A stretch of 64,000 bases of DNA from Obrimoposthia wandeli. Its lineage: Eukaryota. Under the pieces are notes generated by a model that saw nothing but the letters and a program-made list of their open reading frames with translations, was not told where the DNA came from and searched no databases. Positions 23 through 60,163 of this stretch are shown here, piece by piece; position 1 is the stretch's first letter, and the number at the start of each line of letters is the position of its first letter. A program made the translations under genes and the position numbers. The stretch is from positions 434,001 to 498,000 of the forward strand of contig CDROCS010001981.1 in the NCBI GenBank assembly GCA_977020255.1. The letters are read 5' to 3'.

Positions 23-515
23 TTATCTACATGTCAAGTAATAATAAGAAAGACTGAAACATTTTTTATAAGCGCAATGGTCACTATGATTACGATATGG
101 ACAGCAAATATTTCGTGGAATTTTTAATAGATGATCACGTGAAATATTTAAAGTATTCAACCTCAATTTGGGAAAATATTTTTTTAAAGTCTTATACTTT
201 TTGCCATCCATTTCATCTAAAACATAAAAAATTCCATTTTCTATATCAAAATTAGATGTTATTGTATCGAAAATACATATTTCACAAAAAGCCTTATGTC
301 CTTCTTTCCATTTTAATAAATGAAAGTAATTAGTTATATATAAATAAGTAAATTTTTTCTTATAATCTAAACTTTTAAACGGGATATCTATTTGAAATAT
401 GAAATGCAAAGGATGAAAAACGTCGCATACATCCATAATACATAATTCTTTTATAATATAATCACCATTTTTGTTAATGAAAGCCTCAAAATCTATAATA
501 TATTCCTGCTTAATT
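23..515 (-). CDS. Small DEDD-exonuclease-like protein of the type carried by Polinton/Maverick elements
   Basis: The listed ORF 23..436 extends upstream in frame to EYIIDFEAFINKNGDYIIKELCI (DEDD motif-I-like D-x-E). It continues HLLKWKEG and ends CCPYRNHSDHCA. A possible ATG-AAA mini-exon lies near 580. It is co-oriented with two other ORFs reading away from the terminus at 3741. Confidence 0.55.
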
Positions 516-651
516 ATCTAAATTTGCAGCAAATCCCGTTGTTTATAACGAAAAAATTTATTAAAATAACAAAGTACTTTCATATTAAGATTAGTATATA
601 TTGTCAATTCTCCTATATATTGTAAATAAAGACAAAATAATAATCAAAAAT

Positions 652-972: not shown

Positions 973-1235
973 TTTTTAATTATGAAGAGGTTAATAAATT
1001 TGAACCTATATGTATAAATTTAAGATATTTTTTAATCCAATTAAATGATATATTTTTATTTATCAAATGAGAGTTTAATAAATCTATAACTTATCATTGC
1101 AAATAAACCTAATAAACTTAAAGATAGTATTTCTAAATTTAAAATTAAAAAATAAATAAATATTAAGAAGAAAACATATGAAATTAATTTTTATAAATTA
1201 TATTCTTAAACATCTTTACGAAGTCATCATTGGGA

Positions 1236-2978
1236 TCATCCAGGATCGAAATCCCTCCGACTAAGTATTATTGGAGAAAGCGGTACTGGTTCCTTCTTCT
1301 TTGGCCGGCCCGGTTTCTTTTTCGCCTTCACCGGTTCTTTTGTAGCAATTGTCCTTTCCTCAGGTTTTGGCAATAGTTGCCGCAACTTTATGGGGGGAGG
1401 TGCAGCCGATGTTGATGGCCCTGACATAGAAGCAGTAGCCTTTCTCTTCCGCGGAGCTTTCTTCTGTTTCTCCTCCTTCTCACGCTGAAGCTGGTGTGAG
1501 ACGGCATCCTGTTGCCCTCGCGAATCTGGAAGCATTGCCGGTGTATCCAGTTCCGCCAGGAATTCGTCCAATCCAGCTTCATCCCAGGCCCTCTTTAAGT
1601 TCTGGCTGGTTGTTGGACGATGAGAAGCCGATGATGTCTCCTGCAGGCGTCGTTGACTTGATGGCGGACTAATCTCGATCGGTGAGACTGGGATCCTCTC
1701 GTATAAAATTGGACTGTCGTCCACTGGAGATGGGAGAATCTCCTGCCGTCCAATCACCGCCTCAGAATAATGACCAATTGAGGTTTTACATTTTCTCGAG
1801 CGCCTCGTCTTCTTCACCTTTGCCCTCTTCGTCCGTTTCCGCGAGAAAGGAGTAATTTCTCCCCAAGTCTCCTCAAATATCGGGACGGGTTCCTGCAAAA
1901 TATTAATAAAATTTAAACATATAAATAATTTACCTCAATGACGGGCAGATTAGCCTGTTTCACCAACTTGGCCTTCTTCAGAGTGTGGGTTTTGACCCGA
2001 TGGCGTTGCGGTTTCTTAACTGCCGCTTGCTTCCTATCCACCGGTTGAATAGGCGTTGCCTCTTCGTGAATGTTCTCCATCTATGTGAATTATTAAATTT
2101 AGTATCTAAATAATTTACCTTAAAATTGTCTGGAGACGCTAGGTATCGAAGCTGACTCCTTGGCAGCTCCTGGCTGCATTGACTCGTCAAGTACTGCGGT
2201 TCAATCAGCCTCTCCGCCATGGTCACTGACGGTGCCAAATCCAGTTGAAGTTTCTGAAAATGAAATTAAAAAACATTTAAAATAAATGATGTCTAACCTC
2301 ATTCGTCGCCTTTATTCTCCTAACAGGAGATTTCGGCCTTTTGAATGGTTCAGGCGCTGTATTATCTGCTTTCAGAGTAGCAGAGGGAGTGAGACCATCC
2401 CAATCGTCGGTGAACAGGTGCCACTCGTCCTCGTCCAATTCTGCAACCATCGAATCGTTGGCTCCTGGGGCTCCGATACTTGGCTGTATCCATTCGTCGA
2501 TGAATGGAGTCAAGTCCTCCTCCCCATCCGACGGTACGTCATCGGTGAACAGCTCCTCGTCTGAGTCTGGTGCGATGACTTTCTCCGGCTGAGACAGCGG
2601 GATCAATTTCCATGGCCAGGATCTTCTTGCTGCTACTGCCGAAGTTGCTGGACGAACAGCTTCTATGTTTTGCCTGGGAGTACAGTCTTCCCAATTCTCA
2701 ATCGAATCCTGACTAGTCAGGTCAATATATTGGGATCTCTGTACCCCGCCTCTCACGTCCATTGGTTCTTCTCTTGGATTTGAGCTGACCAATGAGGCTT
2801 CTTCTTCCAACAGGTTCGCTCTTGTTTCTGCTTCTCCTTCGCTCACCACCGATGAGTCTTGACTATTTAAGTCAATGTATTACGACGGTGGTGGCGTTCG
2901 CTGCTGCACTGGAGAGAGATCCCCATAGAGTTGAACCTCAGTCTCTTCGTCTAGGTCAACGTTGTTGTAGAATGGCAT
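1236..2978 (-). pseudogene. Four-exon gene for a ~539-aa disordered protein (acidic N-terminus with SIM-like YIDL motifs, basic C-terminus with AT-hook-like KKKPGRPKKK); premature TAA at codon 33
   Basis: Exons 2978-2298, 2253-2119, 2080-1934 and 1892-1236 are joined by GT-AG phase-0 introns of 44, 38 and 41 nt, which link the listed ORFs into one frame. TAA at 2880-2882 corresponds to CAG in the second copy. Matching intron positions are visible in the copy at 4.6-6.4 kb. Confidence 0.7.
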
Positions 2979-3012
2979 TGTTGATTTATGAAAAATAATG
3001 AACGGAGGTGTC

Positions 3013-3020
3013 TTTATATA
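3013..3020 (-). promoter_or_regulatory. Candidate TATA box for the four-exon gene
   Basis: TATATAAA on the minus strand, 35 nt upstream of the ATG at 2978. Confidence 0.4.
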
Positions 3021-3299
3021 CACAAATATCTTACTAACCCCTCTTTTATTGTCCAATGAGAGCCTCTTATTTAAATAATTTATTTTTTGTAATGTTTTTC
3101 GTGCCTGGAGATCAAGAATGAAGCCCGCACCGAAGGGGCGGGTGGTGTATGTTAGGGCCTTGGGTATGACACGGGTCGTTTATATTTGTAGTTGTGAGAG
3201 GTAAAGTGATACTGTAACGTATGTATTTGTAGTTATTTTCGTGAGAATAGAGCCCGCCCCGAAGAGGCGGGTGGTGGTCGGTGGGTGTTTCCGTCCAAC

Positions 3300-3557
3300 A
3301 CCCATCGACTTTCACCCATCACCCGTCGACTTTCACCCAACACCCAACGACTTTCGCCCATCACCCAAGGTAGTTCGTGATATACACCAGAGCGAGACAT
3401 TCAGCCATCACCCAAGGTAGTTAGTGATATACACCAGAGCGCGACATTCAGCCATCACCCAAGGTAGTTAGTGATATACACCAGAGCGAGACATTTGGCC
3501 ATCACCCAAGGTAGTTAGTGATATACACCAGAGCGATACATTCGCCCATCACCCAAG
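3300..3557. repeat. Subterminal tandem repeats: 21 bp x3, then 47 bp x4+
   Basis: ACCCATCGACTTTCACCCATC-type units at 3300, 3321 and 3342. CATCACCCAAGGTAGTTAGTGATATACACCAGAGCGAGACATTCAGC units at 3359, 3406, 3453, 3500 and a partial unit at 3547. Confidence 0.9.
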
Positions 3558-3624
3558 CTAGTCTGTGACATATACGAGTCCCGAGCCTTTCGCGCCGATA
3601 GACGCGAAAAAAATGTTCCCCACC

Positions 3625-3698
3625 CTTGTCCTTTAAAACCGTGCATGTGTGTGGAGTGAAATTTCACTCCACACACATGCACGGTTTTAAAGGACAAG
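3625..3698. repeat. Perfect 74-bp palindrome
   Basis: 3625-3661 (CTTGTCCTTTAAAACCGTGCATGTGTGTGGAGTGAAA) is the exact reverse complement of 3662-3698, with no loop. Confidence 0.95.
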
Positions 3699-4579
3699 AA
3701 GGTGGAGGGGGTGTGGATTAGACCGGACACATCCACCTACTCTCGAAATCTCTTTGCCTTCACGATTCTGTATTTACTTCTTGAAATTTCTGCACTTCAG
3801 TAAATGAAATAAATTGTCTTTATATCTTTTTACCTCGTAGCAGATGCGACGAATCTCTCTGTGTTGATTACTACTAAGTGATTCTGCAATTGATATACCG
3901 ATTGGAATACGGGGTGTAATCCTATGACTTGTGCTGCACTGATGTATTATCACTAATGCTGTATCTATTTAACTAGATTCCTTATGGATTATTTTAACTA
4001 AATTTTCTTCTACGACGTCTCTTTTTTCACACTTTTCCTGCTATATATCTACATAATCTTTCAACCTTTTCAGGTCTCAATTTACTTTATGTATATATTT
4101 TAATTATTTCAAGTCTATTTTATTTTAATTAATTTCGACCTAGTCACTAGGTTAAATGTTTGTATAAATAATTGCTATTATTTATTTAAGTATTCCTTAA
4201 TTTAACAATATAGAGTAATGTTTCTTGATTCACATATGTGAGGTGTGTCCATTTATTGCATTTACAGTTTACATAAGTTTAAGTGAATAATAATCAATAG
4301 CATGGAATTTTTTGAATAGCGATAGGTTTTGGATGCTCAAAATTTCCACTTGATCGAATTTGTGAAACAAAATAGAGTCGCAGTGCAACTTAATTTCTTG
4401 CATATACGTGCTTGCTAGAATTATGTTGAAACTAATCGCGAATAGCCTGAAAACCCGACCCTCTGCCCATTTTAACTGACTACCTTTTGATTCCGTAAGT
4501 ATATTTTTGATCGGATTTAAAAAGGCGTCCAAAGAGTGCCAAAAAGAGAAAACAAGTAAAATTACGAAAATGAAGTTAT

Positions 4580-6374
4580 GTCCAACCTAGGATGAAGATA
4601 TGGAGGTTCAGTTGTATGGGGATCTCTCTCCAGTACAGCAGCAAACGCCACCACCGTCGCAGTACATTGACTTACTTAGTCAAGAGTCGTTGGTGGTGAG
4701 CGAAGAAACATCAACAAGAGCGGAGCTGATAAAAGAAGCATCATTGGCTAGCACAACTCTGACAGAAGAATCAATGGGTGAGAGATTGTCAGGATTCGAT
4801 TGAGAATTGGGAAGACTGTACTCCCCAGCAGAATACAGAAGCTGCTCGTCCAGCAACTTCTGCAGAAGCAGCAATGAGATCCAATATATTTGAAAATTTC
4901 AAGGCGGCAACCAAACACCCCTGGAAATTGATCACGCTGTCTCAGCTGGAGATAGTCCTCGCACCGGACTCTGATGAGGAGCTCTTCAGTGATAGGCTAC
5001 CGTCGGATCAAGAATAGAATTTGACTCCATTTTTCGATGAATGGATCCATCCAAGTCTCGGAGCCACTGCCATAAATGAGTCAATGGTGGCAAAATTGAA
5101 CGACGACGAATGGATGGTCTCACTCCATCTGCTACTCCAACTCCGATAGCAGGCAATACGGCAGCTGAACCATTCAGAAGGCCGCAATCTCCGATGCGAG
5201 CAGTTAGGAGAATAAAGACAACAAATGAGGTTAGACTTAATTTATTTCAAATGTTTTTTAATTTCATCTTCAGAAACGTCAACTGGATATAGCACCGTCG
5301 GTAACCACGGTTGAGATGCTGATAGAACTGCAATACTTGGCGAGTCGTTGCAGCCAGGAGCTGCTAAGGAATGAGCTCCATTACCTAGCACCTCCAGATA
5401 ATATCACGTTAAATTATTTTTAATTAGACTTTAAATTTAATAATTCAAATAGGTGGAGAAATTTCTCGAAGAGGCGACGCCTAGTCAACCTGTGGATAAA
5501 AAGCAAGCAGCTGTTAGGAAACCACAACCACATCGGGTCAAAACCCAGACGGTTCACCGGAAAAATGCCAAGTTGGTACAACAGGCAAACCTGCCTGTTA
5601 TTGAGGTGAATTATTTATATGTTTAAATTTTATTAATTTTTTACAGGAACCAGTCCAGATAATTGAGGAGACATGGGGAGAAATTTCTCCTTTCCCGATG
5701 AGACTAATGAAGCAAGCAGATGTGAGGAAGATGAAGCGATCCAGAAAATGTCGCATCATAATGCTCAACACTAGAGAGGCGGTGATTGGCCAACAGGAGT
5801 TTCTCCCATCTCCAGTGGACGACGGGCCAATTTTGTACAAGAAGATACCAGTCTCCGATCGAGATTAGTCCGCTTCCCAGTCAACGACGCCTGCAAGAGA
5901 CGGCACCGGCTCCATTAACCATCAGCCACAATTTGGTCAATTTCTTCTCTGTCAACAGCAAGCCAGAACTTGAAGAGGGCCTGGGATGAAGCTGGATTGG
6001 CCGAATTCTTGGCGGAACTCGATTCTCCACAACCGGCATTGCTTCTAGATTCGAGAGGGCAGCATGATGCAGTCTCATGTCAACTTCAGCGTGAGAAGGA
6101 GGAGAAACTGAAGAAAGATCCGCGGAAGAGGAAGGCTACAAAACCTACAACTTTGTCGACGGGCCATCTACATCTGCTGCACCTCCAAAAAAGATACGAC
6201 AACTCCTGCCAAAAACCTCAAGGAACGGCAATTGCTGCACAATAACTGGTGAAGCCGAAAAAGAAACCTGACCGACCAAAGAAGAAGGAGCCAGTGCCGC
6301 TTACTCCTATACCACTCAGTCGGAGGGATATCGATGAGAATGATCTCAATGCTTCTCATACCACTCTGCTCTGA
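4580..6374 (+). pseudogene. Inverted, decayed paralog of the four-exon disordered-protein gene
   Basis: Colinear homology to 1236-2978 (VQLYGDLSPVQQ, QYIDL, IENWEDCTPQQN, APDSDEELF, KRAWDEAGL, KKKPDRPKKKEPVPL) with several frameshifts and stops. Confidence 0.85.
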
Positions 6375-6489
6375 CAATCTTAAACAAATTAAGATTTAAA
6401 ACTTGCTGTTGCAGGTCTCTTTTCTTTAAATTCTTCTTATAATTTTTCTCTATTTGTGTCAATAGCCTCTTCATTTCTGGAAATTCCAT
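6346..6489 (-). pseudogene. Truncated paralog of the coiled-coil ORF at 652..972
   Basis: MEFPEMKRLLTQIEKNYKKNLKKRDLQQQVLNLNLFKIVRAEW aligns with MEFIKMKSLVTKIEANIRINEKKGDLRNRVLNQNLYTAVATEW. Confidence 0.75.
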
Positions 6490-6939: not shown

Positions 6940-7260
6940 TTAAATAGGATCATGATCACGTACTAAATCTCTAGAGATTTTATAATAAAGGTAACATATG
7001 CGATACGCTTGAAAAGCTACCTGATTTTCATTTGTCATTGGAGCTTGAATATTATTTCTCCAAAAATATGCAACAATTTCATTGAGAATTTCCGTTTATT
7101 TAACAATAAAGTTGGTAGCACAATCTAAACCGAAACAACATTCCAACTGCAATGGGAGTATGTATATGTTTAACAGTCACATCAGGTTCTAAAATACTTT
7201 CAAAATGAGCGTAAACTACAAAAGGAGGTTGATTTATTATCCGGCATAGTGAATAAAGTT
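6940..7260 (-). pseudogene. Remnant of protein-primed DNA polymerase B (Polinton type), exonuclease/endonuclease-VII-like region
   Basis: QPPFVVYAHFESILEP...KHIHTP (compare PFVIYADFESIL) followed by APMTNENQVAFQAYRICYLYYK...LVRDHD (compare ICHIC...VRDHCH). Confidence 0.7.
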
Positions 7261-7765
7261 GTAGTAACAGTATAAAATTACAATGAATTTTATGTTTATC
7301 ATAAGCAGCCACAGTTCGAAAACCAAAAAGACATTTTGAACCCCAATAAAGTTGTAAACCATAACTTTAACAATTAAATAATCTATTTAAATTAGGAACA
7401 CCACGATAATGATAAATATTACAGTCTTCTATCAATATTAAATTTACAATTTGATTACATTCCCATAAATTATACTAACATTGAGATATTTCGCCACATC
7501 TTTAATCAGGTATTTACTTTTAATTTCAGAATACTTAAAAACTGTAATTGCTATTTAGTTATCACGTTCAAATTGAGGTATTGAGGCTAAGAGCATAGGA
7601 CCTGGCTGAAATTTTAACTCATTTAAATATTGCTCATAAGAAGATGATCGATCTCTACGAAAACCTTCATCGTGTTTTAATACGCTAAGGATAGCATAGA
7701 TAAAACATTTATTATCATCGTTTTTACATTGATTATTGACTAAATATGATTTAATATAGACTTTT

Positions 7766-8229: not shown

Positions 8230-8415
8230 TCCTGTGTTTTCACACTTTAAAGCGGTTTTGGTTGAATGACTTATTAGGGCATTAAGGGATAAATTAAAGA
8301 AACATTTTGTTGCAATTGGATCAAAAAAATTGGTAGAGGTACTACCTAAACTGTTAATTTCATATAATCACTCATCACATCGCGGTTTAGATGGTAAGAA
8401 ACCTATATTTTACTA
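8230..8415 (+). pseudogene. Remnant of Polinton retroviral-type integrase (C-terminal core)
   Basis: KAVLVE*LIRALRDKLKKHF...LVEVLPKLLISYNHSSHRGL matches the Polinton pattern KASIVERFNRTLK...YIDVLPKLV.SYN...H. Confidence 0.75.
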
Positions 8416-8615
8416 AATATATGGAACCCGAAAATTATATTTTAATCGATTAGGTACATCATTCAACTTTGATGATAGGTTGGGTAATGTACTGTTTGAT
8501 GGTGTCTTAATTAGTGTTTTTTTAGACTAAAACATCATTAACAGTCATATAATGAAATACATTATCAACAAGCATTTTAAAAAATCAAAAACCTATATTT
8601 GTTTATAAGAAACTT

Positions 8616-9058
8616 TCAAGAAAAAAATACAATAGACTCAACATGACAATGATAATCAAAATATTTAATACCATGAATAATCACTTTTCCACTAGCAAAT
8701 ACATTAACACATATAGGATCAAACTTTAAAATACTGAGTATTGGAAACAATTCTGGCTCAAATATACAATTTCTTCCCATTTTCACAAATATCTTATACA
8801 AATTAACTTTCTTGTTGATATTCACTAGGATAATAAGAGATTGCTTACGTTCAATTTCTATATTTTGGACATGTTTGATTGGTTGTTTGCAACCCATAAT
8901 CCTGCATGAGCCTAAATAGTAGTAGTAGTATAATAATAATACTTGATGGAAATATAACAATAGTATAATCTTTTAACTTTTCAACATATTGTATAGGTTT
9001 CTTCGATCGAAAAGGTAAGTGACTAACACTTCCCTTAAATTTGCTTTATAATTTATAT
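8616..9058 (-). pseudogene. TBP-like (TATA-binding-protein fold) gene, two exons, frameshift in exon 1
   Basis: Exon 2 encodes SCRIMGCK...FEPELFP...VNVFASGKVIIHGIK (compare TBP YEPELFPG...LIFVSGKVVLTGAK). Exon 1 encodes NINYKANL...DYTIVIFPS. A 31-nt GT-AG phase-1 intron lies at 8912-8942. Confidence 0.75.
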
Positions 9059-11782
9059 TGATTATTTTTATTATATGATAATAATTAAAGATGTCCCAGA
9101 CTTATATAGTTTAATATTATCCAATGAGAATCGACAATCAATCAAGATTCATGTATCCAACGATAACTATCAAAATATTTAAGTTTTCTCTCATTAATAA
9201 ATTTCAATTTAAAATTTGAAGAGCATGAAGAAAAAGAAGAAATACATTTTAAATACAACCAAGTTTAACACGATCCATATAGATTACGATGATACGGAAT
9301 TAGAATATATTTTCAGTGAAAACCCTGTTTAATGAAGCTGTACCTTATTTCAGTTATTCAATGAATTTCCTCAAGACACCTGTTTAATATGGATTTCAAT
9401 ACCCCGTTATGCTAACAAAGTCAAAGTTTGATTATGTCATATCAAGAATCCATATTACAGATACTATATACTAATTTAGAGTTATTTTATTCTGCTTTGC
9501 TTAATGCACTTGATACAAAATTATTAGATGGCTTTCTTCTGATATTACTGTCTCTGTTGTATTCTGTGAGACGTCTGCTGTTAATACAACTTTCTTTTCA
9601 ATGCTTTATGGTTACACAACCGGATAACTATAAACACCGTATGTCTTCGCAAAATTTAAGGTTCAACACATTTTATTTTTTAATTATGCGACATTAAGTC
9701 ATATTACGATTTTAATCAATAAACAATTGAAATTTCAAATCGATAAATACCTATGAAAAACTGTGCTGGTAGTTCAGTAGTACAAGAATGGATGTTCTGC
9801 AATAAAAGTTATCAAAAGCTACTGTATTCAACACGGATTAAAGTCAAAGAAATCATTTTCAAAAAGTCGACATTTATTAAATAAAGTTGGTGAGGTAGGA
9901 AGATAAAACAGCTTTGACATTTTTCTCATGTTGTGCATATTTTGAGTCTACTATACATTGTTTTTGTGATAATACTTTGTTGAAAAATTTGGTTACGTTT
10001 CGTGATTTGAATACTATGTCATAAATCACCCGACTCTACGATATTATTTGTTATCTCAGTAAAGGCTGCAAGCGGTTATTCTGGATACCCACAGATTCGA
10101 GAAGACTATTCGTATTTATTGATTAACCCGGATCAGAACTGATTAGTGAAGATTGAAACGCATAGCAGCTTTGAACTTGAGTATCTTCTTATATGTTTTG
10201 AATATAACTTAATAAGAGTTTACATCTTAGGGAGTTGCATGTCTGGTAAATACACAAATCATTCCGGTATACTCGTATCTCTAGCGAGTCATATCCACCA
10301 ACCCAGTACAAGCCTGTTCGGCATATTTATATTTCCCAACTACAACATCAGATACCACATTGTTACAGCAAATAAGACTCGAAAGAAGCTACTGTAAACA
10401 ATAAAATTAATATCACTAAATATAATCATCTCACGAACCACGTTATTTGATATTTTCTGCAGTTGATTATAAATCAAATAATATAAATGTAATAAGATTA
10501 ACATTATTGAAATACTTATGAACTACATGGAGATACTTCTAACGTGTACTGAAACAGTTAGCATATTACGACATGATCCATTATTAAATAATGAAGTACA
10601 TTAGTTCTTGTCGATTGAAAGCTTTGCCCTACTGTACTGGAAAGATACTCAGACTGGGTAATTTATTTTAGGATTATGTTTATGAGGAAACCGTAAAAGA
10701 AGCCTAGAAATAGGTCAACAAAGGTACCGGCGTTGGTATTTTTAATGAGAATTTTGTTTCTCTAGATTTTACTCAATAAAGTTTCTAAAATTGTTAATTT
10801 TTATTAATATTTGAAACAATTCTCATTAATACACTTTAAATTGTTAACATTTTGATTTATGTATACAATAAATAAAAATACAAGTATCTGTGAACCAAAA
10901 TGTATTATTTTATCAAAGTTATTTAAGCATACGAAAATTGTACTAAATAACATTTTCAAATGTAAAAATGTTTTCATTAGAAATCAATTACATAATACCA
11001 GTGATAAGTTAATTACTTTTTAATTAAATTAATAGTTTTATATACATAAGTTTATATTAAATTACATTTTATTTAATTTTGATAATAAGAACTGTCTATA
11101 TGAAAAATATGTAAAACAGTTTGAATGTCAACTAAATCCCAAAATTGTATGAAAATTAAATGCAGAAAATATATTGTTATAAATTAAAAAGAAATTACAG
11201 ATTTGTTTATATTATATCCGTGCTTCATGCAAGTAAAATTAAAGACCAAATATCTCTCAGAAAAGAAAAGTCAGATCCGTTAGGTGGATTATCTATACAG
11301 TTGTAAACGTCAGCATATTAAAGTACGCAATAGTGAAAAATAAACGATTTCCACTCTCAGCATTGAAGTGAATAAAGAAGGATGTGAATTTTCAAAGACG
11401 GATTTTACAAATTCATTATCTGCACGCAGTCTTCAGTCATCTAAGTACTAAAAATAAGACTTCACTACATGTAAAACGTTATAAGTTTAAAATTAAATAA
11501 AACAATTACGATAATCAAACACACGCAAATAATAATGTGGCCCTCAAAAATTGGGCATTAGAATAAAATGAACAATACTGTACAAAAGGTAGTGTCAGTG
11601 AACAAAGATAAACTGCAACATTCACAACAAAATCATGACTTTCTGTTCGGTATATTAAGACAAAACTAAATTCCGGGTATATGTTTCAAGTTGAGACAAC
11701 TGTATACATAAATGTTGTCTTTAGCAAAATTATGAAGACAGATAGGAGTGCAGTGGTGACAAAGCAACATATATACGGTGGA

Positions 11783-13009
11783 TTACGAGACATAACTGTT
11801 GATGGCTGCGACGGTGTCGATGCTGGGATTGTTAATGAGAGGTAGGCCTCCGCTACTGCTGTGATTGTTGATGAGAGGCAGACCTCCACCATGGCTGGGA
11901 TTGTTGAGAGGTAGACCTCCGCCACTGCTGGGATTGTTGATGAGAGGTAGACCGCCACCGCTGCTTATGTTGTTGGTGTTGGGGAGCTCAAAAGTGGCGC
12001 TGGAACAGTTGACGGATGCGGCAGTAGAGGGCTGTTGTTGGATCACCTTCTTACGAAGGTGAACCTGCTGATGGCGCTTGAGATGCCAGGAATCGTAGAA
12101 TTTCGAGCTGCAGCTATTGCATGAGTAGGGCTTCACTTTTACATGCACCTGCAAATGGTGGCGCTTTAAATGCCAGCTGTCATAGAAACTAGATTTACAC
12201 TCGGTACACTGGAACGGTTTGATTTTCGTGTGGATTTGTTGATGACGCTTGAGATGCCACGAATCCTTGAAGGCCGACGTGCACAATGTACACTTGAATG
12301 GCTTCTCGTTGGTGTGAGTGTACTGATGCCGCTTGAGGTGCCATGAGTCATTGAAGGACGAAGTGCAAAGTTGACAGCGATACGGCCGCGTGTTGAGATG
12401 GGATCGCTCATGACGTCGCAGGTGATGATGGCGGGAAAAGGACGCCGAACAGAGATTGCATAGGAACGGTTTCGAGACGTTCGCCGAGTTAGAAGACTTC
12501 TCAATTTTACTCAGATGACTATTTACTGCTGAGGTGTTGAGAGCTGGTGTTCCCATCGGTGTGATTTTAGAGGTCATCAGTGGCGGAGTGTCTTCGATTG
12601 TAGATGTGGTAACCAGTGGTGTTGATGTACAACTCTCAGAAACTACAGTCGGCTCGTTTTTGCATTCTGATGATGTTGTACTAAGTATAGGCTCCGGAGC
12701 AGCTAAAGCTTTCATTAAACTTTTCGATACATTGCGATCTGGAGGACTTTCTGATTGTTGACTTTGAGATTGAGGCAGTTGAGGAAAGACATCAAATCCA
12801 CGATTGTAATTGTTCAAGTCTTTCATCCAATTGTTTGGGAAATAATTTGGACGACTATTCTGTAACCTTGATTTGGGATCATTCATAAGATGCCCAAAAT
12901 GGAACATATTTTGATCAAAAACATTAATAGGAGAGTTGAAATTTCCTGAACCCACAGGAGCATAGTAGTAATTGAAGTCGTTCATAAAATTTCCAAACCG
13001 AGGGGCCAT
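11783..13009 (-). CDS. C2H2 zinc-finger transcription factor with five tandem fingers (MAZ/VEZF1/ZNF740-like helices); may have an upstream exon
   Basis: Intact 408-aa ORF with five C-x2-C-x12-H-x3/4-H fingers and TNEKPF-type linkers. The ATG is preceded by TTAG, a possible splice acceptor. Confidence 0.9.
   Translation of the reverse strand: MAPRFGNFMNDFNYYYAPVGSGNFNSPINVFDQNMFHFGHLMNDPKSRLQNSRPNYFPNNWMKDLNNYNRGFDVFPQLPQSQSQQSESPPDRNVSKSLMKALAAPEPILSTTSSECKNEPTVVSESCTSTPLVTTSTIEDTPPLMTSKITPMGTPALNTSAVNSHLSKIEKSSNSANVSKPFLCNLCSASFSRHHHLRRHERSHLNTRPYRCQLCTSSFNDSWHLKRHQYTHTNEKPFKCTLCTSAFKDSWHLKRHQQIHTKIKPFQCTECKSSFYDSWHLKRHHLQVHVKVKPYSCNSCSSKFYDSWHLKRHQQVHLRKKVIQQQPSTAASVNCSSATFELPNTNNISSGGGLPLINNPSSGGGLPLNNPSHGGGLPLINNHSSSGGLPLINNPSIDTVAAINSYVS
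11822..11965 (-). repeat. Coding minisatellite, SSGGGLPLINNP x4
   Basis: Four 33-36 nt units in the C-terminal tail of the zinc-finger ORF. Confidence 0.85.
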
Positions 13010-17849: not shown

Positions 17850-18460
17850 TCATTTTCGAAAAACAGGTTTCTTTGATTGTTTATAAACGGTAATCCCTAA
17901 TGGAATGAATATATCAAATCTAAATTTTAAGTCATCAGGACAATATTGAGTAAAATCAATAAACATATTGTGAGGAGCAGTAGTTATCTCTTGAAATGAA
18001 TAAATTAGGTAATTTATAATAACAAAATCAATAACAGTCTGATCACATGGATTCTTGAAGAGAACAAGGTAATGTACATTTAAGTTACGAGTTCTATGAT
18101 TTTTATCTTTATGAAATATATTTCGTATGATGAACATAACAGTTACTTTTCGATGTCTTGCTATTTTAGTGAATAAAATATTGGAATCACTCTCTTTATT
18201 TGCTTCTTGATACAAGTCATCAATAACAATAACATCATGACGCTGTAATAGCTCAGATCAATTATCATCAAATCCATTACTGACTTTTATATTTTTGATT
18301 TCCTTAAACTCTTTACTAGTTAAACCTGCTTCTCATTCTCCTCCCTGATGCCAATATATATTTTAAACTTAAATCTAAAGTATTTATTATTTTGCAGTAA
18401 CCTACAAACACAAAGAGTTTTCCCGCTACCACTAGGCTCTACAATTTGAAAAACTTAATT
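17850..18460 (-). pseudogene. Polinton/adintovirus A32/FtsK-like genome-packaging ATPase
   Basis: Decayed Walker A IVEPSGSGKT (18421-18445), Walker B VIVIDDL, then LFTKIARHRKVTVMFI.RNIF...LNVHYLVLFKNP. Two in-frame TGA stops. Confidence 0.9.
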
Positions 18461-19689
18461 ATTTTTAAAATCTATATTAAAAATATTGCAGTACTGAGAT
18501 AATGTTTATAAGACAAAAAACAGTTACATAAAATATTTGATTACAATATATCTACAATAAACAATAAAAAAACTCTTATCCCAGAAAAAGCTCTTCTGGG
18601 ACGTGTTCTCTTCTTTATTTTTGTTGTAGCCCAAAATGAGGTGATCGACATCCTTGTTGATAAACAATGATTTTTCGAAATAAAAACTTTCCCTACCTTG
18701 TCAAGATCTTCTTTGAAATGATAAGGAGTAGACAAAATAAAGAAGTCTGAATAAAAAGTAATCTGTTTATATACTATACAACTGAAATATGATTGGATGC
18801 TAATTTAGAAAGACACTAAGAAATAAAAATATTGACTCATAAAGAATACAATTTATATATGATAATGATTAAAAATACGTATTTGATTAAGCATTGTTTC
18901 ACTAAAAGCAGGAATACGACGTTTAGCTTTAACACGATTGGAATCAGTGCTAACGCGCACTGAAAGAGATAAAATGCAATAACAATACAAACAGCATGTC
19001 AACTTCAATAATGATCATATAATAGAACTTTCCCTCCATTTTTGATAGTTTCTTTTATTATATTATTAGTTTGTTTATAATATTGTAATATTGTTTCTCC
19101 TAATTTCGAATTTACAAAGATAGACGTATACTTTTATTTCTCATAAGATATCTTATTCATTATATGTGTATTGATGACGTGGGTGAATTCTGATTTTAGA
19201 AGCTCAGTTTCATCAATATCATCTCAATAATTTCCAATATACAATTGATATACTAAAATCTCGCTCATTGGTGTTCTGTTTAATCTTGCCGCACTAAGTT
19301 GACTAAATCTAGCTTGAAACAAACTATCAAAAAGGTGGGACATATGATTCATTTCTATACTGGAAGCATGAGCTATTATGGGTTCCATAAAAGCCAAAGC
19401 ATTTAAGAAATATGATCGTTTGTTTTCTTCTTCAATAATTAATTTCACTTCTTCAATAGTTTAAGTAAATATTTATCGTTGATGCTATCGTTGTCTTCGT
19501 CGCTGCTGCTTCATTACGCTTATCCATTTATTGATAAATTAAAAGATATAAGATTATTTTTTATAACTAAAAACAAAGATAAATCTCTTTTTAGTAATAT
19601 TGCAACTTATTTGTAAGTGATGTCTTTGTGTAGGGAAGAATTAACACAGGTGTGAAGATATATATTAAACAAAATACATTCAATAAAAT

Positions 19690-20130
19690 ATTCATAACTA
19701 AGTGACTTAATACCAAGTATCATCATCTTCTTGCTCGCAAAAATGTTCACACTTAGTGGATTGTATTTGGCATATCGAAGTCCCGGATAAATTTATGGCT
19801 CGTAAACTGCATCCAATCCCATACTCTTGCTCAGTTTGTTTAGGTTTATCGGTTTTTCCAAAATAGTACTGACGCTGATTGATTGGATTCTTTCGATTTT
19901 ATTATCGAAAGGAAGAGTGCTGTCATCTAACACTGCTTTACAGCCCATTATTGTGAATGTTTCTAAATTATATTAAAAATTAAATTGTAAAATAAATTAC
20001 TAGATTTGAATATTATAATAGAATAATCTTCTCACTTGAGCCGATTCTAGTGTGGCTTCGAATTCCGAAATAGTAAGTGTTGGATGTTTTTTCCATTTCC
20101 ATATAATTAATATTCACAAATTTGAAATTG
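19690..20130 (-). pseudogene. Second TBP-like gene, two exons
   Basis: VNINY...DYSIIIFKS | TFTIMGCK...INLNKL...VYEP*IYPGL...VNIFASKKMMILGIK. A 38-nt GT-AG phase-1 intron at 19963-20000 sits at the same codon as in the 8.6-9.1 kb copy. Confidence 0.75.
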
Positions 20131-20267
20131 TGAAGTAATATTTCTGACTATTATAAACTGATTCTTATATACTATTTGAAAATATATTTTTAGACCACAT
20201 GTGATATCTTTGATCAATTGTTTATCCCGTGAAATCATATAATTTTTAATCGTCTAATGATAATTGT

Positions 20268-21162
20268 CTAGCAATATATATATGAAATAAATAGATCTGA
20301 ATATTTAATACATGTATTAAAGTGTCCATATGGTAAAGATGCTACAGAAATCATATCTGACAAGCAAATAATACATTTGGAATTTGGTAAAAGGTATTCA
20401 AGATAATTTTTAACATGACTTGGTTCAGGTTTTATTTGTAAAGAACTTAAATCCGTTAGAAACTCATATATAAAATCATATTTTTTATCAAATGTTTTAA
20501 ACGTATTTTCTAAAACGGATATGATTCTATACAATATCGATATGAATCATTCCAAATAGAGATATGTTGGAAAATCAACAATGTAGGTATTATAAAATCA
20601 TTATGCGTACAATAACTACTTTATGCACTAGATTTGTATCAAAATAAACTTTCTTGTTACTAGTTTCAAATATTGATACATTTAACACATTAATTTTCAA
20701 GTCAAACGGACATGTCGGGAAATAAATCATATGTTCCTTCATTGGTTTAAAATACCACTCTCATTCAGATAATGCACCTTTACAATAAACATATTTTACA
20801 TTATCAGTTAAATCATCATGTTTATAAAACCCGGCTTTTGCTGATGCTTTCTTATCCACTAAACCATTAAACTTTCTTTGCAATGATTCTAATCTAGCCC
20901 GTTCGAATATCATATCTTCATTTCTTCTTGAAATTTTATCAAAACGAAGTCGTCTAATGCTACTTTCTTCATTTGAGATACATAATAAAGAAGATGAGGA
21001 AAGTTTCAGCTCAAATACTATTTGAAAATCTAATTTTAGACCACATTGCATGGTATACTTGATAATGTTGATGGATATAATAAAGCATTCACTGCAATTA
21101 AAAAGAATGCTAGTGTATATCTTGGTACAAAAACTTTCAGTAAACGTTCCATATACCAGCAT
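20268..21162 (-). pseudogene. Inhibitor of apoptosis (IAP), BIR + C-terminal RING
   Basis: BIR: ERARLES...KAGFY...DNVKYVYCKGALSE*EWYFKPMKEH...PTCPF. RING: CIICLSDMISVASLPYGHFNTCIKY. Shows Cys-to-Tyr and Trp-to-stop decay. Confidence 0.85.
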
Positions 21163-21325
21163 TTTTAAATATTAAATTAACTTGCTAATTATATAATACT
21201 TATTTTGTTAAGTAGTTAGTTTAATTATATTTAGTAAATTCAATACTACTTTGTTTTATGAGTAGTTAAATAAAATTAGGTTTAATTTTTACAAGTATAT
21301 AGTTAACTAGTAGTAAGTAGCAAAT

Positions 21326-21693
21326 GCTTTTGAGGCAGACTTGGCAGCAAACACTGAGAGACTGCAGAGTATCCAGGGCTCAGGACAAAGATTGATGGAC
21401 AAAGGTCAGTGCATGGGCCAAGAAAGTGCCGTCGACGAGAGAATCATCAAGCTCACCGATCAGTGGAATTATCTGGTAACCAAGTCCAAGGATAAGGCCG
21501 AGAAACTACAAGAAGCCAACAAGCAGGCTGTTTACAATGCCGAGTTATAGGACATATTTTTCTGACTAGAAGAGGTGGAACATTCTCTCTCGAGTCCTGA
21601 CTATGGAAAGGAATCTGCATCTGTGGACAGTCTTTTATCTAAGCATCAAGTTCTGGGAACAGATATCCATATTCATAATGACTGCATCAAGCC
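21326..21693 (+). pseudogene. Intronless alpha-spectrin fragment (parts of two spectrin repeats)
   Basis: AFEADLAANTERLQSI...LMDKGQCMGQESAV...DQWNYL...KLQEANKQ...LEEVE...DYGKESASVDSLLSKHQVL is typical alpha-spectrin. It is one frame with two nonsense codons. Confidence 0.85.
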
Positions 21694-21905
21694 GAGTATG
21701 GAGATTTTCCGAAACATTGATGAGAATTGTCATCCAGGCAATCGGGAGTACCTTCTTGATTATAACAGCACTGGAGAGTCAACGTTTCTGAAGTTGTTGT
21801 TGAAGCAGTTGAAGCCAAATAACGGAGATGTATTTTGCAACAATAAAACCAAGGTTGGATACTTCAACATCGTATATGGATTGAACTTCGAGCAGACATG
21901 GCTGT
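21694..21905 (+). pseudogene. ABC-F family ATPase fragment fused in frame to the spectrin fragment
   Basis: IFRNID...PGNR..LL.YNSTGESTFLKLLLKQLKPNNGDV...KVGYFN resembles the second NBD of ABCF (GKSTLLKLL.G.L.P..G.V.....IGYF.Q). Confidence 0.65.
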
Positions 21906-22029
21906 GGAATCTCCATGACAGAATTGACTCGGTCGCAACGCTTAAACAATGATTAAGGTTGAATAATGAGTTAGAAGAAGCGTGAGCTGCGAAAGTGACT
22001 GAATAACAGCGAACAATTGAAATGTATGT

Positions 22030-25740: not shown

Positions 25741-26345
25741 ACGTCGAATGTGGATGAGTGAATTAGTGAGATCAAATTGAAGGCCGATCTGCTTGGACTG
25801 GAGAAGAAATTAAGTTCAATTATTCCGCTGAGAATGAAAGGTGAATGTTTAGAATTTAGAAGAAGACGAAAATAGGACGCAGAATCAATTATGAAGCGAT
25901 TAAGGGATACCTATGGGATGGGTCAGCTCGAGGCGTTCAAGCGATTCAGTCAAAGGAAGTGGTACCTCGGAGAATCAGTCGATCGGTTCACGTCGGAATT
26001 GAAAAGTTTGGCATCTAAGATTGGTATGGGAGATAACATTGAAAAATTGGTGCTAGTCGCTGGCCTGCCTTCAGACACTTCAGAAGCTCTGGAAATTTCG
26101 ATGAAGTGTGGATACTGTTCCTTAGATCAAGTTATAGCTGAAGTCCGGACTAGGATGACAAAATAAATTGGAATTGAAGGTATCTTCCAAGTTGTAGCTG
26201 TTCATCATAGAAAAAGAATAATTAATTGAGGAATCAAATGCTTCCGATGTGGAGATGAAGGCCATGTTTCTAGAAACTGATATGTGGAAGAAAAACAAAG
26301 ATGCTACATCTGTAATATAGTTGGTCACTTGGCGCCATTATGTCC
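25705..26345 (+). pseudogene. gag: gag with two CCHC zinc knuckles
   Basis: ATG 13 nt after the LTR; WYLGESVDRF; CFRCGDEGHVSRN* and CYICNIVGHLAPLC. Contains stops and frameshifts. Confidence 0.8.
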
Positions 26346-26399
26346 CAAACGAGAATCAAAAACCACTAAGGGAGTCCGTATGCGCCAGCGGCTCTCCCA

Positions 26400-29181
26400 G
26401 TAATATGTCGTATATTCCAACTGTTATCATCCAAAAAAAAGAAGAAGCTTTGAAAGCAATGGTTGATACGGGATGTTCGAGATCTATTCTTTCGGATGCG
26501 TTGACAGTCAAAGGATTAATCACAAATTTTGATCATAACATAATATTAATGAACGGAGAAAATGTAAATTCGAGGAAGTGCATGGAATGTGAAGTTAATG
26601 TCAATGGACGTAAAATTCGGCTAAATTACATCGTTTCTCGTATAGTACCTGGCTATGACATGTTGTTGGGAATGGATGCTGTCAATATACTTGGTGGAAT
26701 TTAGGTAAGTGGTGATGGAAAGAATGTTAAGTTTGGCCTATTCAATGATGTATATGCGGTATCAGATTCATCGAATCCGGTTGGAGTCGATGATCATGTG
26801 AATGTGCTTCCGGGCAAACAGTTCTTTTTAGAACTAACAATTGATTGTGCGATGGAAGAAATAGTAGGATGTGGTTCCACAGTGAATAGTACATTCAAGT
26901 CAACGGATGAAACTTGTGTACATGAAGGAGGAATGAAAAAATCCCATTCATGGAGAAGTCGTGGATGTCGTGGATAAGGATTTCCATGCAAAGTTCGAGA
27001 ATGGAAGATGGATCGCGAGATGGGAATGGAAAGAAGGAATCGTGAAGCCAGCTCTACAGAACCAGGTGAGTCAATATCGGGTAAAGGACGAGGTACTAAA
27101 TCAATTTGAAGAAGAGATTGAAGAATGGATAGAACAAGGTTGGCTGAGAAAGTATGATGATGAGCACACTGGTGTAATACCTCTCATAGCCGTTCTACAG
27201 CAAAACAAAGGAAACGTTCGTCGTGTGATGGATTATGGAGAGCTTAACGATTATGTTTCAAGCCATACAGCTAAAAGTGAAGTATGTGGCGAAAAGCTGA
27301 GAGAATGGAGGAGATTGGGAGACAACTTGAGCATTGTGGATTTAAGGAAGGCTTATCTACAAATTCATATTGACCCAACTTTGTGGAAATATCAGGTTGT
27401 AGTTTACAAAGGAGTTCGATACTGTTTAACGCGTCTTGGTTTTGGACTCAACGTAGCTCCAAAGATTATGTCAGTAATCGTAAGGTAGGTTTTGTCAATG
27501 GATCAGACGGTGGCAAGTGTAACGGATTCTTATGTAGATGATATAGTTGTTAATGAAGAGATAGTATCTACTGAAGAGGTTATCAATATGTTATTAAAGT
27601 ACGGTTTAGAATCGAAGCCACCAGAAAAGCTGAATGGTGGTAGAGTGCTGGGATTGCGAATTCATCAAAACCAAAATGTGATGGTATGGAAGCGCGACAA
27701 TATACTGGCTAAAGGGAATGACAATTTAACGCGAAGGCAAATGTTTTCTCATTGCAGTCAGATGATTGGACACTTTCCCAAAGCTGGATGGTTGAGACTG
27801 GCGTGTAGTTATTTGAAAAGATTGACAAACGGTACTAATTGGGAAGACAACGTCGAGAGTAAAATCGTTGAAAAGCAGAAAGAAATTGAGGAACGTGTTT
27901 CGGAAAACGATCTTGTGCGAGGAGTTTGGAAAGTGACTGATACGATTGAAGGAACAGTTTGGTGTGATGCTAGCAGTCTCGCAATTGGAGTCGTAGTGGA
28001 TATTGATAGTTCGGTAGTTGAAGACTTCAGTTGGTTGCGGAAGGAAGATGACTTCTCTCACATCAATTTGGCAGAGTTAGAAGCAGTTGTCAAATGACTT
28101 AATTGTGTGATCAAATGGAGGCTGTCGCGAATTCTTGTTTATACAAATTTGTCTACGGTTCATGGCTGGGTAAAGTCAATTACATCGGGAGACAAATGAG
28201 TAAAAACGCATGGTCTTGGATCGGCATTAGCGTATAGGCGACTGAATCTATTGAAAACCATAATAGAAGAATGCAGACTAACTGTTAATATCAGGCTAGT
28301 AAAGTCAGCAGGAAACAAAGCTGATGAGCTTACCAGAGTGTCCCAAAAGCGTGGCCTGCAGTAGCGTAATCGGCAATGAAGCATAAATATTGGCAGTGCA
28401 CAACCTGAATCATCTTGGCATTGACAGAACAACGTATCTTTTAAAATGTCAGTATCCTGAACTCAATGTGAAACGAGAAGAAGTAGCAGCTGTCGTATAA
28501 CGCTGTTTTAAATGTAAAAGTATAGATCCAGCATCAATTCGCTGGGAACATGATGAGTTATCAGTTGATGCAAATTGGAGTCGATTGGCCTGTGATGTAA
28601 CCCATTATTTAGGGAAGTGTTACTTATCCATTATCAATTGTGGACCAAGCCGATTCACCATATGGAAGTTGCTCAATGATGAGACACATTATTCAGTGAC
28701 TACCGCCATGACCGATGTCTTCAGAGAACACGGGTCTCCAGATGAGTTGTTGATGGATAATAACCCAACCTTTAAGTCACGGCATTTTCAAAACGCTTGT
28801 GGATCATGGAAGGTCAAGTGTGTGTTTCGATGTGCTTATCGACCATCAGGAAATGGGATAGTGGAACGTGTTCACAGAACCGTCAAACGAATGGCTGCCA
28901 GAAGCGATGCAGATATTCGCGACATGTGTTTTTGGTATAATGTTTCTCCGAAATGTAGTAACAAGGACAATTCTGTTCCCGTGCGAGAACTGTTTACATA
29001 CGAATGGCGATATCCAAACGTTGAACCAAATTTGTCGACATTTCAAAACATTACAGGTTACAACATGGATCAGGCTGTATTTGTCAAACCTCCCAATGTG
29101 CGTTGCACATCAGTTTGGCCTAAGGGAGTAATTACTGGTTTGAGTGGAGCAACGCAGGTAGAAATCGACGTAATTCCTTGA
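26400..29181 (+). pseudogene. pol: pol (protease, reverse transcriptase, RNase H, integrase)
   Basis: AMVDTGCS (PR); VDLRKAYLQI, LGFGLNVAP, YVDDI (RT); WCDASSLAIG, HINLAELEAV (RH); HHLGIDRT, LACDVTH, LLMDN, GNGIVERVHRT (IN). Multiple in-frame stops. Confidence 0.92.
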
Positions 29182-59046: not shown

Positions 59047-60163
59047 AAGCACAAGATTTTATTCTCTGAGTCGGGATTTTTGTGTGAAAGTAATGAGATT
59101 TTGATTATAATTGTCTTAATTACAGGAATTTCCAGTAAACAAGTACCTACATATTTACTTATACCTATTCGAACCACTACAGGATTTTAACTTGAGAAAA
59201 TATACAGACAAAGCATCTATGTCATACTTGTCCTTTATGATGGCTATTTATCTTTAAGGGTGTAGCACAATTTTCTTGTAATAAGGTTTTCCTGCTTTAC
59301 TCCAATGAATATAGAGCTCATACCTTTTGTAATCAGTATTTTGACCCGAGATAATATCACCTGTTCTTTTTTCAAGAACTAATTGTGTGTTGCATTTTTC
59401 CATTGGTTTTCAATCAAAACTGCTAAGTGTACAGACTCATATCAAATGAGTTTCCAAAAGTCATCCAAGTATAATTCTACTATTTTTATCAACTTTCAAG
59501 TCATATTTTGAAACTATCTTGTCCATGTGCTTGATCGTCAAGAAGGGATTTAACAGAACCGCATTATATTATAAAGTGCTATTATATTTAAGTTTTTACA
59601 GAATTTTATCAAAAAATCATTAATTTGCATCGATTTTCTATACTATTAAATTAGTATTTAACACTTAAAAATTACTGTTTTTTTTAAAATAAAAAATAAC
59701 ATGATTGATTATTTGTATTTAAAACTGAAACATTTATCAAATTAACTTTTTGACTACTTTGAAATATTGTAAGACTAATCGACATATTAATATTGTTTAT
59801 CTTTATTATACTTTACACATCATAGAAGTCTGGAACGTTTGAATATTTATATCGAAATATTTGACCTATAGTCAGCTACATAAATTTGGATTATTAGTTT
59901 AAAAAATATATATTTATTTATAATTATATTGATATAGAAAACCATTTGAAGAAAAATATAATAAAATCCAAGATTTAAAATTGAAACTTTTATACTTTTT
60001 CCCAACTGCAATATTTACATAATTTGGTACATTATCCTTGTATATAAAATATTCTTTCATTCATGTCAAACATGTCAGACATGTTTACGTTCTTACTTTC
60101 TTGTTAAATGTTTTATGTTAAAATTTAAGAAAACTTTTACTATCATTTACTATCGAAATTAAA

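Follow-up and report, generated by a model that had tools for sequence, protein, structure and literature searches.

A TBP-like pseudogene in Polinton debris

The window analyzed here is a 64,000-nucleotide stretch of Obrimoposthia wandeli DNA (contig CDROCS010001981.1, positions 434,001 to 498,000) from an AT-rich host genome of 1.35 Gb. The original prediction placed in it a TBP-like gene with FEPELFP and VFASGKVII motifs. Both motifs were found in the minus-strand frame 8616-8972, and a Pfam search matched this frame to TBP (PF00352; E-value 1.6e-7; score of 31.5 bits, above the cut-off of 22.9), intact relatives scoring 49-67 bits with the same profile. The N-terminal part lies in other frames and reaches 9071. 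The gene is compact and has no N-terminal tail, as had been proposed; however, the size given for it (~137 aa at 8616-9058) was too small. Comparison with sister copies, from which the two-exon layout was derived, gave ~145 codons with a start near 9071. Positions of this and other features are listed in Table 1.

Table 1. Features of the window and their positions
Feature	Position	Strand	Remarks
Mini-TBP exon 1	8943..9071	(-)	repeat 1 up to FxxG; no start codon, frameshifted
Intron, phase 1, predicted	8912..8942	(-)	31 nt, GT..AG, TAT/TAC repeats, within the Gly codon of FxxG
Mini-TBP exon 2	8616..8911	(-)	rest of repeat 1 and repeat 2, including the FEPELFP stirrup
Canonical TATA TATATAAG	9101..9108	(-)	~30-37 nt upstream of the TBP start
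CCAAT box (coding-strand ATTGG)	9121..9125	(-)	
Divergent neighbor ORF, remnant	9144..9462	(+)	next to TBP in most lineages
TATAAACA	8600..8607	(-)	at the 3' end of TBP
IAP gene, 5' piece	8526..8590	(-)	gene after TBP in the window's lineage
Unnamed ORF, piece	8411..8521	(+)	inverted here; precedes pPolB in intact-order copies
rve integrase fragment	8232..8407	(+)	brought adjacent by rearrangement
Protein-primed PolB (pPolB), N-terminal fragments	6942..7737	(-)	
A32-type packaging ATPase remnant	17868..18487	(-)	
Second mini-TBP remnant	19640..20120	(-)	other lineage, more decayed; between IAP and ATPase remnants
IAP remnant (BIR and RING)	20217..20895	(-)	
ORF with acidic DFE motif	23..517	(-)	open, 164 aa; in many elements conserved next to TBP or protease; unmatched in Pfam and NCBIfam; presumably exonuclease-like
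GC-richer repeat, several copies	1000..6400		low-complexity ORFs; also in or beside other Polinton copies
C2H2 zinc-finger ORF (Pfam)	11783..13009	(-)	open, 408 aa; inside Polinton debris
Spectrin-repeat fragment	21317..21952	(+)	continues into an ABC-like fragment in one frame; below cut-off
LTR-retrotransposon remnant (presumed from motifs)	25876..29181	(+)	gag/protease/RT/integrase
RING, TRAF-zinc-finger and coiled-coil ORF	60122..61156	(+)	344 aa; Pfam below cut-off

Activity of this copy had been implied, but the copy in the window is a pseudogene that sits in scrambled Polinton debris. Its start ATG is missing, exon 1 is frameshifted near 9040-9045, and an early stop leaves 97 codons in exon 2, compared with 101 in most sister copies (where the full gene consists of 43 codons, the junction and these 101). 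Terminal inverted repeats (TIRs) are absent from it. In our assessment, the locus 8616-9071(-) is a broken copy of a shortened TBP gene (mini-TBP) from a Polinton/Maverick clade, and the product of this gene probably serves as a late-promoter factor. As a pseudogene, the window copy cannot itself act in this way.

The PolB remnants reported nearby were recovered as pieces of pPolB. The integrase fragment, described as ~200 bp from the TBP gene, is also present, but the closeness is accidental, since only scrambled, partly inverted pieces occur in the window; where the order is colinear, TBP and integrase are separated by IAP, a small ORF and the ATPase. We also considered TATAAACA as a promoter of the IAP gene and dropped it, because it occurs in just 9 of 54 sister copies.

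A short intron within the mini-TBP gene

We examined 60 copies of the window's lineage for the intron and found both anchors in 54. A GT..AG insert was present in 44 of these 54, and the length of the insert (median 38 nt) broke the frame in 50. Its removal yields FxxG-x-CRIMG, as in intronless relatives. Four other lineages of the host genome and metagenomic locus L054 (read by hand) carry GT..AG inserts of 37-40 nt and unrelated sequence in the same Gly codon, and the second mini-TBP remnant of the window has a 38-nt GT..AG intron (19963-20000) in the same codon as the window intron. One lineage of the host genome and most metagenomic relatives are free of an insert; for example, L039, L046, L056 and L062 are single ORFs without GT-AG. 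Hand readings were used for the donors C935:7848 and C1864:635, and the lineage copies L146/L147 for C5039:3183. Introns of host TBP-family genes (43-48 nt) are located elsewhere, and by hand counts none is at the mini-TBP codon. Among the joints listed for four contig runs of unrecorded type, none equals the intron.

These data suggest that the 8912-8942 insert is a spliceosomal-type intron. If it were instead a microsatellite insertion that broke the gene, its TAT/TAC repeats, the range of 23 to 236 nt in the window's lineage and the occurrence of inserts shorter than the introns of host TBP-family genes would be readily explained. We consider this very improbable, given GT..AG ends in most copies, restoration of the motif of intronless relatives by excision, unrelated inserts at the same codon in other lineages and L054, and the conservation of both exons although nearly all inserts disrupt the frame. 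With such an intron, ORF-based annotation truncates or overlooks the mini-TBP gene. Passages of a published study report introns in dinoflagellate polinton-like proviruses (PMC11957031).

Mini-TBP belongs to the regular gene set of a Polinton clade

A search with exon 2 detected at least 150 mini-TBP copies in the O. wandeli genome; 150 of 27,206 first-look candidates were scored and all 150 matched, so that this number is a floor. The copies, except for the window itself, are 80-87% identical. The genome has at least six TBP lineages; a comparison of four others with the window's lineage gave 51-58% identity. In colinear copies, the genes follow the order: divergent ORF, TBP, IAP, small ORF, A32 ATPase, unnamed ORF, rve integrase, penton, core-protein-like ORF, capsid, protease and PolB. 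The penton ORF is a presumed assignment based on its position. Two elements have a full gene set enclosed by TIRs, C935 (~15 kb; TIRs of 567 bp, 88%) and C2008 (~14 kb; TIRs of 1203 bp, 97%), and the TIR-bounded elements carry TBP, ATPase, integrase, penton, major capsid protein (MCP), protease and PolB. None of these elements, 14-15 kb in size, showed an RNA polymerase gene. Pfam matches in colinear sister copies included pPolB (PF03175, with E-values as strong as 2e-34 in the host genome) and rve integrase (PF00665); the A32 ATPase (PF04665) was matched in sister copies and the C5 protease (PF00770) in locus L044, and the MCP of L042 was assigned to DJR-like clusters of the Atlas at 0.97.

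Ten relatives with 42-54% identity were found in a 90% protein database. A profile search of 50% clusters yielded 2,026 proteins with E-values of 0.001 or lower (305 at 1e-10 and 51 at 1e-30); a few of the 150 matches listed are cellular TBPs. A Polinton core gene (ATPase, integrase, penton, capsid or PolB) adjoins TBP in 19 of 60 metagenomic loci, a count that includes near-copies (L041-43, L044/46, L077/79 and L092/93/96). Three more loci have an unnamed acidic ORF alone beside TBP, and the remaining ones are short or cellular. Scans of viral contigs with the family alignment, TBP, ATPase and a eukaryotic TBP alignment detected no relatives, and neither did the genome-contig scans. The earlier remark that TBP is not a standard Polinton gene suggested a one-off, which is not supported: a clade of Polintons carries mini-TBP regularly.

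Several elements showed additional features. The metagenomic Polinton L042 has a ubiquitin-conjugating E2 gene (PF00179; 225-722(-)) and two penton-like ORFs. An intronless TBP lineage of the same host genome (L166/L168, on C919 and C1607) has CATAAAC in place of TATAAAC before the ATPase and a reversed PolB arrangement. L092/L093/L096 are Polinton-like, with a longer, different TBP that contains FEPELFPA, and have TATAAAC on neither strand.

The divergent ORF next to TBP in most lineages is predicted to form a mostly beta domain or beta-barrel. Searches of Pfam, NCBIfam, PDB sequences and the Atlas gave no match, nor did Foldseek against PDB at E-values of 0.001 or lower; weak structural matches were to giant-virus proteins of unknown function and baculovirus ssDNA-binding proteins. 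These fold matches point to a likely viral ssDNA-binding protein. A role as a TFIIB-like partner of mini-TBP was considered but is unlikely, as the fold is not TFIIB-like.

Relationship to host TBPs and selection

The host itself has at least four TBP-family genes, on C238 (L138/L139), C968 (L140/L165), C60 (L141) and C1092 (L142). They comprise two canonical TBPs that are adjacent and in opposite orientation, one TRF-like gene, and an intronless divergent paralog in two copies with Ser at F99.

The gene had been described as far diverged from cellular TBP, and the element protein is indeed only 21-24% identical to each host paralog, whereas its identity with other Polinton TBPs is 43-58%. A quick tree was built from 156 rows, with partial proteins of <135 or >200 aa omitted. 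In it, all eight element TBPs of the host genome fell inside a 78-member mini-TBP clade with 98% support, and cellular TBPs and one divergent Polinton TBP (L073) were placed beyond a 96% branch. The tree has long branches. An AU test on a 38-row subset rejected a clade of the element TBPs and the host TBPs of this genome (p-AU 1.6e-40). Thus, phylogenetic analysis with host TBP and TRF gave no grouping with host paralogs, and the proposal of a mobile-element TBP held.

To analyze selection, 13 pairs were compared across 80 codons taken from exon 2 or the region equivalent to it. Between lineages, dN/dS was 0.04-0.20 or dS was saturated: in seven diverged pairs, synonymous sites were saturated or nearly so and dN was 0.14-0.40, and three pairs had ratios of 0.10-0.20. 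Close pairs had ratios of 0.17 and 0.35, and one pair was without a synonymous difference. Judged by these codon comparisons, the mini-TBP gene is under purifying selection between lineages. In the window's lineage, 35 open copies gave a mean ratio of 0.52, which fits the expectation for selection before insertion and decay afterwards; 11 of 54 copies of this lineage have no visible lesion. With at least 150 copies in the genome, and a few of them without a visible lesion, stray expression could affect host promoters.

The presence of several divergent TBP paralogs in the host, together with the spliceosomal-type intron and host-type promoter of mini-TBP, might suggest a host TBP/TRF paralog, or a recent host capture, that rides passively in the elements. 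This origin appears extremely improbable in view of the identities, the nested position and the AU test; in addition, the mini-TBP intron is absent from host TBP genes, and dN/dS between lineages is far below 1.

Structure and DNA-binding surface of mini-TBP

A structure model of P0009, a relative of the window protein, had a pLDDT of 89.9. Its top five matches among 48,161 chains were TBPs (Z-scores of 10.8-12.2, rmsd of 3.2-3.9 and 153-156 aligned residues), and the next chain had a Z-score of 6.9. The model supports the assignment of the two-repeat saddle fold of TBP to this family. Of the two-repeat fold that had been proposed, both repeats are present but they are asymmetric, repeat 1 being without helix H2 and most of H1. 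Helix H2 and the linker comprise 29 residues in the host, compared with 13-16 residues and no helix in the mini-TBP family. In cellular TBP, the basic helix H2 is the surface for TFIIA, TAF1, Brf1 and Mot1.

Residues are given in yeast TBP numbering; positions 94-110 and V203 were counted via motif spacing. Position-by-residue DNA contacts beyond the passages of the cited papers are our assumption. DNA-contact positions were taken from Table 1 of PMC12529657 and compared in 69 core sequences. Conserved residues were F190 (69 sequences), F207 (68), F116 (67) and N69 (64), along with P191, and the TFIIB stirrup acids E186 and E188 (67 of 69 each). An acidic stirrup is the site of TFIIB binding in cellular TBP, where passages of PMC12529657 name the pair E184/E188. 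Other positions were consistently replaced: T124M and N159S in all 69 sequences, L205N in 68, V122R in 67, V71N in 66, I194R in 64 and V203C in 64 of 68, while V161T/S is near-invariant. Residue 215 is Leu in most sequences (T215L) and His in the window's lineage. The phosphate contact R196 was not retained, and Phe was found at the F99 position in none of 58 placed sequences. Thus, when the surfaces named for checking were inspected, three of the four phenylalanines (F99, F116, F190, F207) and the TFIIB stirrup were found, but F99 and helix H2 were lost. The canonical DNA face (N69/N159, T124/T215, V71/V122/V161/V213, L114/L205) is not preserved as such, although N69 is kept. Repeat 2 (I194R, V203C, L205N, T215L) is rewired as much as repeat 1, and residues 194, 203 and 205 are positions of the altered-specificity mutant TBPm3, according to passages of PMC1636458.

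A TATAAAC box upstream of Polinton core genes

The motif TATAAAC(A/G) was found within 100 nt before the first Met in 33 of 51 core genes from 11 elements: ATPase (8/8), MCP (7/7), core-protein-like ORF (6/7), post-ATPase gene (5/7), acidic ORF (3/6), penton (2/7), protease (1/3) and integrase (1/6). It preceded none of seven TBP genes. The background frequency was 9% of windows, and shuffles had a mean of 1.24 and a maximum of 4. The box was strongly biased in strand (75 sense versus 9 antisense) and is located ~30-50 nt upstream of packaging and capsid genes on the coding strand. Upstream of TBP, copies of the window's lineage have TATAWAWR (37/46) and ATTGG (CCAAT; 36/46), and TATAAAC in none of 46.

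The boxes that precede MCP, pX and the post-ATPase gene overlap, always in one frame, with the end of the ORF upstream, and protein constraint may add to their conservation; the ATPase box is the only clearly intergenic one. A wider check of the region before the ATPase, in 20 parsable of 26 loci, detected TATAAAC in 14, CATAAAC in 2 and neither in 4. TBP is without R122/M124 in two of these four box-less loci and in L077/L079. L071, L073 and L077/L079 have both a TBP without R122/M124 and no box before the ATPase, a weak covariation among three related elements. Two decayed loci of the window's lineage, L016 and L020, also have no box there. A search for a TBP-less Polinton as a control found none: in a search for distant ATPases, TBP was located within 1.5 kb in 11 of 12 ATPase loci of the host genome. 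It may therefore be host TBP that reads the box, as a signal common to the whole clade.

Possible function in late transcription

Indirect support for the idea that mini-TBP redirects Pol II to element promoters comes from the strand specificity of the TATAAAC(A/G) box that precedes core genes and from the conserved TFIIB stirrup. With moderate confidence, we propose an early/late switch in which mini-TBP, made by the host, brings host Pol II to packaging and capsid genes. Early in this scheme, the mini-TBP gene would be transcribed by host TBP from CCAAT and an ordinary TATA box, and its short intron would be excised by the host spliceosome. Mini-TBP would then bind TATAAAC(A/G), with the rewired repeat 1 (F99 lost, V71N, V122R, T124M) over the 3' half-site. 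Host TFIIB and Pol II would be recruited via the E186/E188 stirrup, and the loss of helix H2 would free mini-TBP of control by TFIIA, TAF, Brf1 and Mot1-type factors.

The changes in repeat 1 fit the C at position 7 of the box, since the N-proximal repeat of TBP meets the 3' half of the box (passages of PMC1636458) and C:G pairs in TATA variants force Hoogsteen pairing. According to passages of PMC4402545, Hoogsteen pairing is the only way for host TBP to accommodate such C:G pairs, and it avoids a leucine clash; Hoogsteen pairs were confirmed in TBP-DNA structures (passages of 10.1101/2021.06.05.447203). TBPm3 disfavors C at sites 6-8 (passages of PMC1636458). The rewiring of repeat 2, over the ordinary 5' TATA half, is unexplained by a simple account based on C7. 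A reversed register on TGTTTATA is conceivable, but it would orient TFIIB wrongly.

A different explanation is that host TBP reads the box as a weak TATA and mini-TBP is a repressor, or a decoy or competitor for TFIIB or host TATA promoters. It is consistent with the TFIIB stirrup being the best-conserved surface while F99, R196 and helix H2 are gone, with the lack of a TBP-less Polinton among the ATPase loci searched, and with the ability of TBP to bind C:G-bearing TATA variants through Hoogsteen pairs (passages of PMC4402545). However, the DNA face is not drifting, as new residues are near-invariant at eight contact positions in the 69 sequences. In addition, the box is restricted to core genes, is missing before TBP, and is missing in elements with a different TBP type. 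We regard this explanation as unlikely, although it deserves serious attention.

It was also considered that mini-TBP might be a structural protein that bends DNA for replication or packaging of the element rather than a transcription factor. The gene is head to head with the likely ssDNA-binding gene or beside the ATPase, and in the protein one Phe and a large part of the surface for partners are gone. This role appears improbable: boxes precede genes all along the element and not at its ends, and the acidic stirrup, which binds TFIIB in cellular TBP (passages of PMC12529657), is kept.

The late-promoter reading thus remains the preferred one. A stronger version of it, which we offer only tentatively and would not be surprised to see fail, is that a single 145-aa altered-specificity TBP forms the smallest known private switch: expressed early from CCAAT/TATA and often gated by an intron, it would alone read the late box and recruit TFIIB and Pol II while escaping TFIID, TFIIA and Mot1. 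No partner protein of the herpesvirus type was found in these elements, and the conserved neighbor is not TFIIB-like.

Polintons are usually treated as being without a transcription apparatus, and the timing of expression of their genes is the question raised here. With a conserved element-encoded TBP and a matching box, early/late control in Polintons could be tested directly, and so could the question of whether they behave as viruses. If the proposal is true, the two would be a natural orthogonal TBP-promoter pair. Mini-TBP is also a natural experiment on TBP itself: the saddle is minimal, the DNA face has been rewired, and the TFIIB stirrup alone is retained.

Comparison with known systems

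Mini-TBP shares the saddle fold over the whole chain with cellular TBPs (yeast 1rm1/7o4i, human 5fur and Sulfolobus 1mp9), along with N69, F116, F190, P191, F207 and the E-P-E-L-F-P stirrup. Unlike them, it has ~145 aa, a repeat 1 that is without H2 and most of H1, no Phe at position 99 and the substitutions described above, and it is mobile, multicopy and highly divergent from the host TBPs.

The vTBP of beta- and gammaherpesviruses requires five further viral proteins. Represented by KSHV ORF24, EBV BcRF1 and HCMV UL87, it is likewise a viral TBP-like protein and, in passages of PMC12529657, is thought to guide Pol II of the host to late promoters that contain a variant TATA. It shares with mini-TBP polar replacements at the equivalents of V122, V161 and L205 (Table 1 of PMC12529657). 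However, ORF24 has 752 aa, binds Pol II itself and acts in a multi-protein complex, whereas mini-TBP is a bare core; ORF24 keeps the four phenylalanines and lacks the TFIIB acids, whereas mini-TBP has lost F99 and keeps the stirrup (passages of PMC12529657). The late box also differs, being TATT for the herpesvirus protein, in the passages of the literature covered, and TATAAAC for the Polintons.

TBPs of Nucleocytoviricota and mirusviruses were the best viral structural matches in BFVD (Heterosigma akashiwo virus, Terrestrivirus and mimivirids), with E-values to 3.7e-7 and TMq of 0.5-0.67 against the P0009 model, but Nucleocytoviricota TBPs are only 8-20% identical to mini-TBP. Nucleocytoviricota usually encode their own RNA polymerase.

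Other Polintons, Mavericks and adintoviruses share pPolB, rve integrase, A32/FtsK ATPase, adenain-type protease, double-jelly-roll capsid, TIRs and IAP cargo. A "TBP" label is present, without analysis, in the Fig. 5 legend for non-animal MELD viruses in the part of Starrett et al. covered here (PMC8502044; preprint version bioRxiv 697771), and passages of PMC8097293 that describe vertebrate Mavericks as intronless mention neither TBP nor TATA. Beyond the Starrett legend, searches of the openly accessible literature turned up no study that analyzes a Polinton TBP or the TATAAAC box. Unlike in these MELD and Maverick accounts, TBP is here a fixed gene of the clade with an intron and a matching box. 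The theme of a viral TBP is already known, and the clade-wide Polinton mini-TBP adds a variant to it.
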